Assembly: GCA_035531395.1 (NCBI GenBank)
Contig: DATKTA010000035.1
Span: forward strand, 72,736-136,735
Origin: Bacteroidales bacterium
GTDB lineage: Bacteria; Bacteroidota; Bacteroidia; Bacteroidales; VadinHA17
Direction: 5' to 3'
DNA length: 64,000 nucleotides
The notes beneath the pieces were generated by a model. The model did not search any database. It was not told the DNA's origin and saw only the letters and a list, made by a program, of their open reading frames with translations. The translations under genes and the position numbers were made by a program. Below, piece after piece: positions 31,165 to 33,994 of this stretch (within the stretch, counting starts at the first letter, position 1; every line of letters begins with the position of its first letter).

Positions 31165-32325
31165 ATGAAAAAGTTCATCCTGCTTTTAGCAGTGTTTAGT
31201 ATCACAATCGGAGCAATGTCCCAGAAGGGGAAGGTTACAAGCGCTCTCAGTTTAATTGATCAGGGTCAGCTTGATAAGGCAAAAGAAGCTATTGATCAGG
31301 CGCTTGTCCATGAAAAATCAGCCAACTGGCCAAATACTTTCTATGCAAAAGGAAGACTGGCACAGTCGTCATGGGAATCAGATAACCCTAAATTCAAGGA
31401 ATTTTATCAGAATCCTCTTGAAGAAGCTTATGCATCTTACCAGAAAGCAATGGAACTTGATCCTAAAGATCAGATTAAGAAAAAGATCATTACATCAATG
31501 ACATATAGTCAGCTGGCATCTGACCTGTATAATCAGGGAAGCGTACAGTTTGATGAAAAAGATTTCAAAGGAGCTTTAGAATCTTTTAGAACACAGATTG
31601 AAATTTCCGAAGGAGATATATATGTTGGTTCAATAGACACCGGAATGTATTATAATGCCGGCCTTGCAGCAACTAACTCAGGTAGTTATGAAGCAGCAAT
31701 CAAATATTTTCAGCAATGTGCTGATATGAAGTATATGGGAATTACTCCATATTATCAGATATATGAAGCTTATCTCGGGCAAGGCGATACAGTGAAAGCT
31801 GAGAATACTCTTACAGAACTGCCTAAACTATTCCCTGATGACAAAACCATAACTCTTCAGTTAATTGACCTTTATATTAAAAGTGGGAAAAATGCTGATG
31901 CCCTTAAACACATAAAGACAGCAAAAGCTGACGATCCTTCAAATTATACTCTGTACTTCGCAACAGGTATCATTTATCTGAATGATGAGAATTATGATGC
32001 AGCTATCGAAGAACTTCAGAAATCAATTGAGCTTAATGGAGAAGTTTTTGACACACAGTACGGAATAGGAGCGGCCTATATTAACAAAGCAGCTGAAATG
32101 TTCAAGGCAGCTAATGAAATAATGGATGTTAAAAAATATAGTGATGCTGTTGATGCTGCCAATGCAATTTATGCAAAAGCTCTTCCTTTTATGGAAAAAG
32201 CATACAAGCTCAGTCCGGATGATGTATATACGATGAGAAGCCTGAAGGAACTGTATTACAGAATGAAGCAGACTGATAAGTATGATGCAATAAATGCAAA
32301 ACTTGAAGCTGCAGAGAACAAGTAA
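31165..32325 (+). CDS. TPR-repeat secreted protein
   Basis: Signal peptide followed by TPR-like helical repeats. Confidence 0.75.
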   Translation: MKKFILLLAVFSITIGAMSQKGKVTSALSLIDQGQLDKAKEAIDQALVHEKSANWPNTFYAKGRLAQSSWESDNPKFKEFYQNPLEEAYASYQKAMELDPKDQIKKKIITSMTYSQLASDLYNQGSVQFDEKDFKGALESFRTQIEISEGDIYVGSIDTGMYYNAGLAATNSGSYEAAIKYFQQCADMKYMGITPYYQIYEAYLGQGDTVKAENTLTELPKLFPDDKTITLQLIDLYIKSGKNADALKHIKTAKADDPSNYTLYFATGIIYLNDENYDAAIEELQKSIELNGEVFDTQYGIGAAYINKAAEMFKAANEIMDVKKYSDAVDAANAIYAKALPFMEKAYKLSPDDVYTMRSLKELYYRMKQTDKYDAINAKLEAAENK

Positions 32326-32347
32326 GATTCTTTAAAGTTATTTATAA

Positions 32348-32379
32348 AGAGGGATAAATCAATATCCCTCTTTTTTTTT
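32348..32379 (+). terminator. Rho-independent terminator
   Basis: agaggga taaatcaata tccctct followed by a run of T. Confidence 0.85.
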
Positions 32380-32443
32380 GTGTGGACTGTATAGGGGAGA
32401 GTGAAACCAATATATGAGATTAACCGGATTATATATTGAATTA

Positions 32444-33056
32444 TTCTATTTGACATAATATTAATTATAGGCAAAACGTCCCGCACTCTTAATTATCCCG
32501 AAATTTGCGTTTAGCTCCGCTAATTGACATAATTTCAGATATGAGCCGCAAGGATCATATCGGTACCGAAATTATGTCAAAGCAAATTTCTTCCTTCTAT
32601 ATCGGCAACGATTTTATGTCAAAGGAATTTGCGGTTTACAGAGAAAGTAATTTTCTACAACGCCCTTCTGCCTCTTTTGCAGCGATAATTAATACTATAT
32701 CAAATAGAATTGGCGACCGGCATCCCATCTTCGCCAAGGCTACGATGGACAAGACAGGCTTCCGGCAACTGGCTTTAATTCATCCAGAATCAATTATTTC
32801 GATCCAGGTAGTATATCTGTTCGGAAAAATGCTGTGGAGGCTGGAGATACTTTATAGGCTGTAAAAGCAATAGCTGGTTGAAAAAGCTGAAAGGTTGAAA
32901 AGTTGAAAGGTTTAAGCGTTATTAAAGTGCAGTACTTAGTTCTTTCCATTCGCATTCTCCACAAAATATTTTGAGCAATTAAGTCCAGCCGTTGAGCCAT
33001 TGTCCCATTGCGCCATTGCGCCTTTAATTTGCTTTAAAACATTATGTCAAATAGAA
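32444..33056. repeat. 613-bp non-coding segment bounded by perfect 16-bp inverted repeats (MITE-like or invertible-segment-like)
   Basis: ttctatttgacataat (32444-32459) is the exact reverse complement of attatgtcaaatagaa (33041-33056). Internal copies of the core occur at 32524-32533 (ttgacataat), 32571-32580 (attatgtcaa) and 32614-32622 (ttatgtcaa). No convincing ORF lies inside. Confidence 0.6.
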
Positions 33057-33117
33057 ACAAAGAATCACGTGATTAATCCCGGAATTAATGCTGTGATAAA
33101 CTGGAGGGTAAGCGTGA

Positions 33118-33777
33118 TTAAACTGCCTTTTTATACTCAAAAGTAAATGTCTGATTATAATTACCTGTAAACTCCCAGTACTCTTCAATAAGCCTGGCTT
33201 CACTATCGTAACTGAAATTGATGAATCCTATCACTTTCTTATCCTGGATTATACTCCCCTTACTAAGCTTACCGGTACTGTCGTAAACAAAACTGATCTG
33301 TCCGGTAAACCAACCATGATAGCCTTCCCATTCAGCCTTAATGACCTCTCCCTCTGCATTATACAAATAATTTGCTTTATTGCTGTAACCATCTGATCTA
33401 TGAAATTTTTCAGTTAGTAATTGATTATCTGAGTCATACTCAAAGGTTTCAGTTGAAGTCAATCCATCAGAAAACTCCCTGTACTTTTCGATAATATTAC
33501 CATTAAAATCATATTTATAGATGTTAACAGAACTCCTGCTGTTATCTAATTGCTTCCAGGTTGATCTGCTAAGCCGGCCATCTTCACCATACTCAAAAAG
33601 AGAAATGCCATTTTCTCCTGAAGAACTAGAATAAGGCATACCTGAAAATCCACATTCTGCAAATCTTCTCTGTAACTCCTTCAGATTATACTGAGAAAAT
33701 GAAGTATTTGAAATAATGATGAGCAGAACAGACATTATTAATAAAAGTCTTACATAGATCTTTTTATCTGAAACCAT
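33118..33777 (-). CDS. Secreted repeat protein (YD/MORN-like repeats), function unknown
   Basis: Signal peptide, then repeated Y.YD..G.l..e units (FEYGEDGRL, YKYDFNGNI, FEYDSDNQL, YLYNAEGEV, FVYDSTGKL, FSYDSEARL). Confidence 0.5.
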   Translation of the reverse strand: MVSDKKIYVRLLLIMSVLLIIISNTSFSQYNLKELQRRFAECGFSGMPYSSSSGENGISLFEYGEDGRLSRSTWKQLDNSRSSVNIYKYDFNGNIIEKYREFSDGLTSTETFEYDSDNQLLTEKFHRSDGYSNKANYLYNAEGEVIKAEWEGYHGWFTGQISFVYDSTGKLSKGSIIQDKKVIGFINFSYDSEARLIEEYWEFTGNYNQTFTFEYKKAV

Positions 33778-33994
33778 AATACAACTATTTACTCTTTTGC
33801 AACAAAGTAAAAATAGTTCATTCTATAGATAATATAATATTTCTTATACCTATGGGCGGTTTGATCATACGAATAGCATATTTTAAAGAATGCAGTAAAG
33901 GCTATATTTTCAGTTGTGAATAATTCAATACCAAAAGAATTGGAGTCTGACAAAAGAGCAACTGAATCCCACCATTGAGCCTTTGCGCCAATTA

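Follow-up and report, generated by a model that had tools for sequence, protein, structure and literature searches.

Genomic context of the segment

The DNA analysed here is a 64-kb stretch (the window; positions 72,736 to 136,735 of contig DATKTA010000035.1) from an uncultured Bacteroidales bacterium. It represents ordinary housekeeping chromosome of ∼39% G+C, carrying clpB, gyrA, tRNA genes, the genes for FtsY (SRP-receptor GTPase) and succinyl-CoA ligase, and others. Two convergent genes of the window, encoding a TPR protein (31165-32325, plus strand) and a 219-aa protein (33118-33777, minus strand), are separated by a gap of 792 bp (32326-33117). This gap, put at ∼790 bp in an earlier note made from the sequence alone, contains a 613-bp non-coding segment bracketed by a 16-bp inverted repeat. 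The left end of this segment very probably belongs to the dif site of the chromosome, and the segment as a whole may be a gene-less module that depends on Xer recombination in trans.

The repeat has TTCTATTTGACATAAT (32444-32459) as its left arm and the perfect reverse complement of this word (33041-33056) as its right arm, which confirmed the earlier description. It is the only perfect inverted repeat of at least 16 bp with arms at most 1 kb apart in the 64-kb window, the chance expectation being 0.02 per window (2 of 100 first-order Markov simulations). The core word TTGACATAA was found seven times in the 64 kb, against 1.19 expected, and five of these copies are located inside the segment (32450 and 32524 on the plus strand; 32572, 32614 and 33042 on the minus strand). 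The earlier note had placed the internal copies at 32524 and 32614 correctly and the one at 32572 a single position too low (32571), and it had missed a longer partner of the left arm within the segment (32443-32468 versus 32685-32710; 26 nt, 92% identity) as well as the membership of this arm in the 28-bp site described below. The nested repeat aaatttgc/gcaaattt around gatatga..tcatatc that it reported is real and folds with z = −7, and the two 8-bp tandem arrays (about 32875-32915 and 32989-33022) are equally real.

The largest open reading frame (ORF) inside the segment (32505-32864, 119 aa, TTG start) has no Pfam match and is not kept open in homologous loci, and the interpretation of the segment as a protein gene was rejected, in agreement with the earlier note. 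The same holds for its statement that the flanks (gaatta / acaaag) show no target-site duplication. Its claim that the window lacks a recombinase gene stood for the 20 ORFs, of ∼50 in the window, that were tested. A cluster of DnaA boxes of the kind expected for oriC was also considered and rejected (TTATCCACA-like boxes, 18 observed versus 22 expected).

When species-representative genomes were scanned with the TPR protein, 14 syntenic loci (L001-L014) were identified in metagenome-assembled genomes (MAGs) of uncultured Bacteroidales and Bacteroidetes, with TPR proteins 57-92% identical to that of the window. The gene order of the window is clpB-gyrA-TPR, followed by dif and then by variable genes. 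In the relatives, the common order is clpB-gyrA-TPR, the site, variable genes, a gene of the mandelate racemase family and an NlpC/P60 gene.

Identification of the chromosomal dif site

The dif site is the 28-bp sequence at which the tyrosine recombinases XerC and XerD resolve chromosome dimers, and it is expected in every circular chromosome with XerCD. All 128,000 positions of the window were scored with a weight matrix built from 11 published dif predictions for Bacteroidetes other than Bacteroidia (Kono 2011 supplement). The highest score (30.8 bits; training sites 27-40) was obtained for 32448-32475 on the minus strand, while the runner-up reached 12.2 bits and the background was −30.6 ± 9.2. 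Only one strong dif was therefore seen in the 64 kb searched, the stretch to which this test of uniqueness applies. The site reads TTTGCCTATAA-TTAATA-TTATGTCAAAT on the minus strand and comprises a predicted XerD arm (32448-32458; ATTTGACATAA on the plus strand, 11 nt), a central region (32459-32464; TATTAA on the plus strand, 6 nt) and a XerC arm (32465-32475; TTATAGGCAAA, 11 nt). The left 16-bp repeat (32444-32459, plus strand) takes in the whole 11-nt XerD arm, 4 nt of flank outside it and a single nucleotide of the centre.

Among the dif sites predicted for 19 Bacteroidetes by Kono et al. 2011 (PMC3025954), that of Gramella is TTGTACTATAA-TTTATA-TTATGTAAAAT, and that of Pedobacter has the centre TTAATA. 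The window site agrees with the Gramella forsetii dif at 20 of 22 positions, with C in the XerD arm where Gramella has A; for the form carried by the related loci the agreement is 21 of 22. The XerD arm of the window site is identical to that of Capnocytophaga (TTATGTCAAAT).

An essentially invariant stretch of ∼31 nt, tattctattt(t/g)acataatattaattataggc, occurs once per locus, 100-200 bp past the TPR stop codon. The dif site is ∼100% conserved at the same syntenic, intergenic position in L001-L014 and in at least 45 metagenome loci (about 60 related loci), although the TPR proteins are only 57-92% identical. In L002, L003, L005 and L014 it is the sole feature between the convergent genes ("empty" sites). 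The left "terminus" of the segment also exists in relatives without the element and is therefore part of the host site, not of an insertion. After regressing out gene strand, the best GC-skew switch was found at 30-33 kb with the sign of a terminus, but the effect was weak (residual sum of squares reduced from 226 to 205).

We consider it very likely, from these comparisons within the 64 kb and with the related loci, that 32448-32475 is the chromosomal dif. The "terminal repeats" of the earlier note are, in all probability, XerD-binding arms, the left one being part of the chromosome's own dif.

A hairpin unit resembling a folded dif

A predicted DNA hairpin unit with a three-way junction is located at 32500-32590, and its long stem is formed by two inverted XerD-arm-like half-sites. 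The closing stem P1 (32500-32508 / 32582-32590; GAAATTTGC/GCAAATTTC) is followed by a 5-bp side hairpin, P2 (32511-32523), and by the 13-bp stem P3 (32524-32536 / 32568-32580; TTGACATAATTTC/GAAATTATGTCAA), which carries the XerD-arm-like words TTGACATAA/TTATGTCAA. A 1×6 internal loop lies between P3 and the 7-bp stem P4 (32538-32544 / 32555-32561), and the apical loop is GCAA (32548-32551). The calculated DNA fold has a free energy of −25 kcal/mol on either strand, with z about −7. On the strand reading dif in the order XerD-centre-XerC, the 5' half of the hairpin is (A)ATTGACATAA-TTTCAG-ATATGAG. It is composed of an arm agreeing with that of XerD at 10 of 11 positions, a spacer of 6 nt and a weak XerC-like core; its inverted partner, in which the spacer measures 11 nt, is formed by the 3' half. 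A matrix for the XerD arm alone places the half-sites 6th to 8th among the 128,000 positions, and the full dif matrix places the 5' half 9th (6.9 bits). By its geometry the hairpin is a putative folded dif mimic comparable to CTXphi attP(+), but the conserved arm is that of XerD.

A pattern scan of metagenomes yielded 57 hairpin loci, nearly all of them syntenic. The pattern fixed 28 nt, so that P3 and part of P4 are invariant by construction in this set. A recognisable dif was present 55-75 nt upstream of the hairpin in the same orientation in 45 of the 57 loci (153 nt in L061, for the second tandem unit). The remaining 12 comprise two cut contigs without upstream sequence (L049, L067), the inner unit of a tandem array whose dif lies beyond the examined stretch (L034), a locus that keeps the centre and XerC arm only (L046), a dif with a one-base insertion in the XerD arm (L081), three dif variants with a longer centre (L041, L042, L071), three dif sites split by an insertion of 21-33 nt (L051, L057, L047) and a chance match in coding sequence, the sole such case (L074).

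Some of these dif sites deserve separate description. The variant with the longer centre, ACATAA-TGCAATNCA-TTATAGG, has a central region of 9 instead of 6 nt, is located at the usual position and is adjoined by a normal hairpin. In the split sites the insertion lies precisely where the XerD arm meets the centre (in L057 the three parts are, in order, ctattttacataa, caattattatcacacctctcc and taatattaattatagg), and these genomes either have another functional dif elsewhere or carry the footprint of an aberrant XerD-side strand exchange. The whole contig L028 (2294 bp) is a fold-back palindrome with arms 98.5% identical and the TPR gene end on both sides; its interpretation as two inverted dif sites was rejected, as it is almost certainly a fold-back assembly artefact.

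Nearly all of the 53 unique hairpin units fold alike when treated individually. In an alignment of 40 units, 96.8% of the cells were paired and 13 pairs had changed on both sides. Such both-side changes were counted in 119 cells, compared to 38 ± 6 in shuffled alignments and at most 21 in slid controls. As the search pattern left no room for variation in P3 and part of P4, the evidence for covariation comes from P1, P2, the apical stems and loci L007-L013, which were found through the TPR protein and have the same hairpin fold. The compensatory changes in P1, P2 and the apical stems argue for selection on intrastrand pairing. A covariance model recovered the window hairpin at 105.7 bits (32494-32596, the sole match in the window) and those of L009 and L013 at 88-92 bits; in 527 kb (the window and related loci) it detected only dif-adjacent copies. 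A search for further copies, as recommended in the earlier note, revealed none in the window, and the related copies recovered elsewhere are dif-adjacent.

Watson-Crick pairs make up ∼99% of the helices. One strand has 10 internal G·T pairs and the other 17, stability does not differ between the strands, and no asymmetry in G·T pairs that would indicate the strand of folding was found. A search of Rfam, also recommended in the earlier note, gave no match at the gathering threshold or at E values up to 10. The Bacteroidetes −7 box TAnnTTTG does not occur on either strand between 32330 and 33130, and a search of the segment for sigma-70 promoters and terminators detected only the terminator of the TPR gene. 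Because the G·T pairs are rare and symmetric and because promoter, terminator and Rfam match are lacking, the hairpin is favoured as a DNA and not an RNA structure.

No match to the 661-bp region was found in phage or plasmid collections, and the stem pattern had 0 matches in 2.9 million IMG/VR contigs. A phage origin of the hairpin was rejected after three scans of viral contigs had given chance coding matches or nothing. In three viral-flagged contigs (L022:3199-3420, L023 and L026:2150-2700) the same dif motif is followed by different palindromes (GAGTAGTTTTATTACTCA-type), and L022 has an inverted XerD arm (TTATGTAAAATAG) ∼170 bp away. These palindromes may represent a second family of dif-adjacent hairpin elements.

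Organisation of the 613-bp segment

The 613 bp on the XerC side of dif are non-coding and consist almost wholly of Xer-site-like pieces, including one and a half copies of the ∼100-nt hairpin. The half unit (32599-32636) is the 3' half of a second hairpin of another type, designated "AA", and reads TATATC-GGCAAC-GATTTTATGTCAA-AGGAATTTGCGG. It forms the direct repeat D1, can be aligned to the complete hairpins of L057 and L046 over their 3' halves, and is 87% identical to its counterpart in L033. Two hairpin types, "AA" and "TT", can be distinguished among the loci, and AA-type hairpins start 3-6 nt after the XerC arm.

The next piece, dif' (32678-32710, plus strand), is an inverted, degenerate, full-length dif-like site, TGCAGCGATAA-TTAATA-CTATATCAAAT plus the flank AGAAT. 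It agrees with dif in all 6 bp of the spacer, and it is the second-best weight-matrix site of the window (12.2 bits). It is 97% identical to that of L033, is conserved in L033/L070, L044, L065 and L068, and occurs in variant forms in L057, L046 and L030. A conserved block at 32757-32805, GGCTTCCGGCAACTGGCTTTAATTC...GAATC(A/G)ATTATTT, was recognised in a six-locus alignment.

Two arrays of 8-bp repeats follow. The first (32875-32915; GTTGnAAA type) is positionally conserved in L033, L065, L030, L046 and L044, and the second (32989-33022; CCATTGNG type) is loosely conserved (59% versus L033). Their interpretation as sites resembling the FtsK-orienting polar sequences (KOPS) was rejected, since there is no strand polarity across the window and the words differ between loci. 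Arrays of unrelated sequences with a period of 7-8 bp were also observed in L006:6610-6665, past the hairpins of L061 and L069, and after dif' in L046, L047 and L033 (for example, GTTTCTCG ×6, TTATTTC ×3, TGGCGTC ×3 and GTCATGCAG ×3). They could be products of slippage at the terminus or protein-binding arrays.

The right 16-bp repeat (33041-33056, plus strand) is composed of the XerD arm alone (TTATGTCAAAT, 33042-33052) and the outer flank AGAA. Its score with the XerD-arm matrix (15.1 bits) is tied for the top with dif itself, and no ..ATAA XerC arm is present 6 nt away, which makes it a predicted XerD half-site without a XerC partner. An inverted copy of the XerD arm with its flank was found 250-600 nt from dif in 13 loci, always on the XerC side and never on the TPR side. 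Outside the right repeat there is a 41-nt block (33057-33097), ACAAAGAATCACGTGATTAAT...GCTGTGATAA, with identities of 88-92% in L057, L030 and L066 and 78-80% in L065 and L046. It is kept although the downstream genes differ, and it contains AATCACGTGATT and a repeated GTGAT(T/A)AA word.

Conservation and turnover among related loci

The sequences of L033/L070 align to positions 32445-33057 of the window, exactly from repeat to repeat, with 76% identity. The order dif, hairpin, half unit, dif', conserved block, 8-bp array and inverted XerD arm is shared by L065, L057, L030/L066, L046, L044 and L068. Identity between the window and L033 is 97% for dif plus flank, 98% for the hairpin, 87% for the half unit, 97% for dif', 79% for the right end and 59-75% for the other blocks, compared to 59% for the spacer between the TPR stop codon and dif (a noise control) and 45% for four-fold degenerate sites of the TPR gene. 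Since conservation is so uneven, selection must act on the Xer-like pieces.

The number of hairpin copies per locus varies from 0 to ∼4 tandem units, and L001, the closest relative, has only a truncated hairpin remnant. Hairpin type is nearly uncorrelated with the identity of the host TPR proteins (r = 0.28). The window and L065, for instance, share 61% identity in the TPR protein and 96% in the hairpin, while the respective values for L065 and L077 are 88% and 71%. This suggests that hairpin types have been exchanged between lineages. Every copy of the module is nevertheless found at the same locus, although its type is incongruent with the TPR phylogeny of the hosts.

Genes and insertions beside the site vary as well. 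An insertion of 2.1 kb in L010 (7351-9500) contains four short ORFs of 99, 142, 79 and 82 aa, two of them apparently encoding membrane-anchored proteins, and none of the four matched a PHROG family. Direct repeats comprising dif and 19 nt of the adjacent hairpin start flank the insertion, an arrangement that suggests Xer-mediated integration of a small element at dif. Genes for a BsuBI/PstI-type restriction enzyme and a C5 methylase are located beyond the module in L033 (11415-13446). An NOV_C-domain protein is encoded in L030 (5812-6666) and L065 (2170-4089), with 93% identity between the two hosts, and in L065 it is adjoined by a Fic protein. The 219-aa and M81 genes that adjoin the module in the window are arranged differently in L001. 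The neighbours of the module are accessory genes or resemble defence or toxin genes, and genes seem to be exchanged with particular frequency on the XerC side of dif, as at a hot-spot.

A weak gapped direct repeat of ∼115 bp (32915-33030 versus 33875-33994; for example, CCATTGCGCCATTGCGCC versus CCATTGAGCCTTTGCGCC) encloses the right repeat, the 41-nt block and the 219-aa gene. Among 485 random window pairs, 3 reached its local score of 48. The repeat may be the trace of an insertion of the 219-aa gene.

Interpretation

The explanation that we favour, at a probability of about one half, is that the segment is a gene-less module dependent on Xer recombination in trans. According to this proposal, the hairpin would adopt its fold where the DNA is single-stranded or forms a cruciform, and would thereby offer XerD, and perhaps XerC, a binding site that imitates dif. 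By recombination or unequal exchange with the true dif, the hairpin would be inserted beside the XerC arm, multiplied there (0 to ∼4 tandem units) and replaced by other hairpin types, so that the pieces of the module would be both substrates and products of Xer recombination in trans. The dif' site and the right repeat would serve as boundary sites, like those of the Acinetobacter dif modules, and accessory or defence genes would be gained and lost on the module's side of dif. In broad terms this picture agrees with the proposal in the earlier note of a non-autonomous element on which a recombinase acts in trans; the recombinase would be the host XerC/XerD.

Several observations weigh against the Xer-dependent module. 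The metagenome covariation is uninformative on P3 and part of P4, which were fixed by the pattern. The XerC-like core of the hairpin, ATAT(A/G), is weak (4-5 of 11 XerC-arm positions), and CTXphi integration is catalysed by XerC. No donor for the module was found in the phage, plasmid and IMG/VR collections. The repeats of the segment are inverted and the right one lacks a XerC arm, whereas Xer integration gives direct repeats; the segment is not flanked by direct dif repeats and has no conserved ORF, which distinguishes it from a gene-carrying element integrated at dif. The TT-type loci carry half an AA-type unit, and therefore ancestral mixed arrays combined with differential loss could mimic horizontal exchange. 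The orientation and position of the hairpin are fixed in every locus and the key pieces are under strong purifying selection, a situation that a host function fits at least as well as a selfish module does. The support for a terminus from GC skew is weak and comes from 64 kb only.

The main rival is a host function for clustered XerD-only sites, which we regard as possible but rather unlikely. The additional copies of the XerD arm (hairpin arms, dif' and right repeat) would in this case be part of the terminus architecture of the host, acting in SMC unloading as do the XerD/XDS sites of B. subtilis, in arresting FtsK or setting its direction, or as accessory sequences like those of cer/psi, placed on the XerC side. 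The strong conservation of Xer-like pieces against decaying spacers, the fixed position and orientation in every locus and the lack of a mobile donor in the phage, plasmid and IMG/VR collections are all consistent with such a role, and the right repeat, an XerD arm with a conserved outer flank and no XerC arm, looks like an XerD-only site. A precedent exists in B. subtilis, where XerD/XDS unloads Smc-ScpAB at the terminus (Karaboja 2021, as summarised in PMC11894783). Yet the close relatives with a bare dif (L002, L003, L005 and L014) demonstrate that the module is dispensable, and neither the copy number of 0 to ∼4 nor the incongruence of hairpin type with host phylogeny is what this function would predict. 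The compensatory changes in P1, P2 and the apical stems also speak against it, as duplex XerD sites need no intrastrand pairing. Finally, the XDS sites of Bacillus are reportedly spread over hundreds of kb, and are not clustered within 600 bp.

It is less likely again that the segment is a relic of one or more integrated single-stranded DNA phages or other Xer-exploiting elements, with no present function. The hairpin would then be an attP(+) or minus-strand origin that outlasted a deletion of the coding part, and dif' and the right repeat would be decayed junctions. In Bacteroidales, microvirus proviruses have dif-like sites at their flanks and in some cases a further inverted copy (PMC3091885), and L010 has an insertion with dif repeats at the very same site; in addition, the hairpin geometry resembles CTXphi attP, and the closest relative, L001, has a truncated hairpin. 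Decay, however, is inconsistent with 97-98% identity beside saturated four-fold sites and with a fold kept through 13 compensatory pair changes in dozens of lineages. The hairpin is absent from the phage and viral contigs searched, and the ORFs of the L010 insert have no PHROG match.

The structured RNA locus suggested in the earlier note, a non-coding RNA gene or genes with an incidental dif nearby, is improbable. The stable fold with its significant covariation is in its favour, and the apical GCAA and GAA loops and the tandem G·A mismatches are common RNA motifs. C-GAA-G triloops and Y-GA-R tandem G·A pairs are, on the other hand, also classic motifs of stable DNA hairpins. The ∼1% of G·T pairs without strand bias, the equal folding of both strands, the lack of an Rfam match even at E up to 10 and the absence of the TAnnTTTG box and of an internal terminator argue against transcription into a functional RNA, and such a role leaves unexplained why the stem sequence is that of the XerD arm of the adjacent dif.

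We find it very hard to uphold the invertible switch, also suggested previously, in which XerC/XerD or another recombinase would flip the 230 bp between dif and dif' or the whole 613 bp. The inverse orientation of dif and dif' with identical 6-bp spacers corresponds to the condition for inversion at Acinetobacter pdif sites (PMC13141974), and the outer arms form a perfect 16-bp repeat. Nonetheless, one orientation, with the hairpins beside the TPR-proximal dif, was seen in 13 of 13 loci with the outer copy and in 7 of 7 distinct loci with dif', the sole apparent inverted duplicate being the fold-back artefact L028. The arms of dif' are degenerate (12 versus 31 bits) and the right repeat has no XerC arm. 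The segment contains no promoter box, both neighbouring genes end at the gap, and no recombinase gene was found nearby among the 20 window ORFs tested.

The idea of a miniature inverted-repeat transposable element (MITE), with termini recognised by a transposase encoded elsewhere, can be regarded as effectively refuted: in spite of the perfect 16-bp termini of a non-coding segment and of a homology to L033 that stops exactly at the repeats, there is no target-site duplication (gaatta / acaaag), a second copy away from dif was found neither in the window nor across the 527 kb of related sequence, the segment always occupies the same dif-adjacent locus, and the left "terminus" is present in relatives without the element.

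The Xer-dependent module may be extended to a broader, distinctly more speculative form, which we consider unlikely. This uncultured Bacteroidales family would possess an Xer-based, integron-like platform at the terminus, with dif as the primary site. Gene-less dif-mimic hairpins would insert 3-25 bp from the XerC arm, multiply there and pass between lineages, while XerD-only and degenerate inverted sites would delimit modules, and the adjoining defence and accessory genes (restriction-modification, NOV_C nuclease, Fic, and the 219-aa and M81 genes of the window) would be swapped. If true, this would be a new class of non-autonomous mobile DNA needing only the host XerC/XerD, and the first non-phage system of this kind outside Proteobacteria.

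Exploitation of Xer has so far been described for Vibrio and Neisseria elements that integrate at dif and for the Acinetobacter dif modules. In the literature on Bacteroidetes dif, Xer-exploiting elements and pdif modules we found no description of a hairpin module of this type, which appears to be new, while the dif site itself is ordinary. The present analysis pins down a dif, with the confidence given above, for a poorly known Bacteroidales lineage in a class whose published dif predictions are unreliable. It also reveals, on the XerC side of this site, a conserved, structured and gene-free DNA module whose hairpin resembles CTXphi attP, has no phage attached and occurs in types that do not follow host phylogeny. 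Xer exploitation may thus extend to Bacteroidota chromosomes, where it may help to move defence genes at the terminus.

Comparison with known systems

The site at 32448-32475 shares with the Bacteroidetes dif sites of Kono 2011 (PMC3025954) the structure of two 11-bp arms and a 6-bp centre (28 bp), the intergenic location between convergent genes and the conservation across relatives. It is a near-match to the consensus of Flavobacteria and Sphingobacteria, ..CTATAA-TTwATA-TTATGTnAAAT. The sites predicted by Kono for Bacteroidia are heterogeneous, whereas the lineage of the window has a Flavobacteria-type site; the predictions for Bacteroides, Porphyromonas and Parabacteroides are mutually different, and several are far from the skew switch. 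The Flavobacteria-type motif of the Bacteroidales MAGs might be a better seed for re-prediction of Bacteroidia dif.

As described for B. subtilis XDS (Karaboja 2021, via the account in PMC11894783), the segment contains XerD half-sites without a proper XerC partner in the presumed terminus region. The XDS of B. subtilis are single duplex sites, reportedly dispersed, for which binding of XerD has been shown, while the half-sites of the window are predicted, clustered within 600 bp, partly self-pairing and absent from close relatives.

The members of the IS1202 family target dif/pdif 5 bp from the XerC arm; they are 1.5 kb long, encode a transposase and generate target-site duplications (PMC10132070). 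Target specificity, fixed orientation and a position a few bp outside the XerC arm are common to them and to the module of the window, which differs in having neither a gene nor a target-site duplication.

The attC sites of integrons are imperfect palindromes of ∼60-140 nt, conserved in structure above sequence, which are recombined as folded single strands by an Xer-related tyrosine recombinase. Structured palindromes in arrays beside a fixed primary site are likewise found here. The differences are that the window has no intI gene and no cassette ORF between hairpins (20 window ORFs tested), that the conserved arm is the XerD arm and not an R''/R' core, and that the arrays have at most ∼4 units.

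The dif modules of Acinetobacter (PMC13141974, PMC6449649, PMC12907356) are discrete segments bounded by inverse Xer sites, and the dif-dif' segment, with internal XerC sides and identical spacers, would correspond to a "C module". ORF-less modules exist in Acinetobacter as well, their content is shuffled independently of the backbone, and toxin or defence cargo is found nearby, as in the loci described above. In contrast to those modules, which reside on Rep_3 plasmids, that of the window lies at a chromosomal Bacteroidales dif; its second sites are degenerate (dif', 12.2 bits) or XerD-only (the right repeat), it has folded hairpins, and no orientation variants were seen among the loci.

The closest parallel in geometry is CTXphi attP(+), in which two sites in inverse orientation, their central regions measuring 5-7 bp and 12 bp, pair within a single strand and leave a bulge (PMC4246890). 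In the folded attP(+) (Val 2005; Das 2014, PMC4246890), as in the predicted window hairpin, inverted dif-like half-sites pair into a dif mimic with an unpaired central bulge, and the central regions are unequal (6/11 nt in the window hairpin versus 5-7/12 bp in attP2/attP1). Both are located at dif and have no recombinase of their own. The window hairpin, however, keeps the XerD-like arm and has a weak XerC-like core, whereas CTXphi depends on XerC; its half-sites, as in the other hairpin units, are spaced by 20-45 nt compared to 90 in CTXphi; it has the extra side hairpin P2 and the closing stem P1; and it occurs in tandem copies in the chromosome, with no phage genome attached and no copy in the viral contigs searched. 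The module, probably made and maintained by XerC/XerD in trans, would accordingly be related both to the attP hairpins of the CTXphi type and to the dif modules of Acinetobacter, but without genes of its own.

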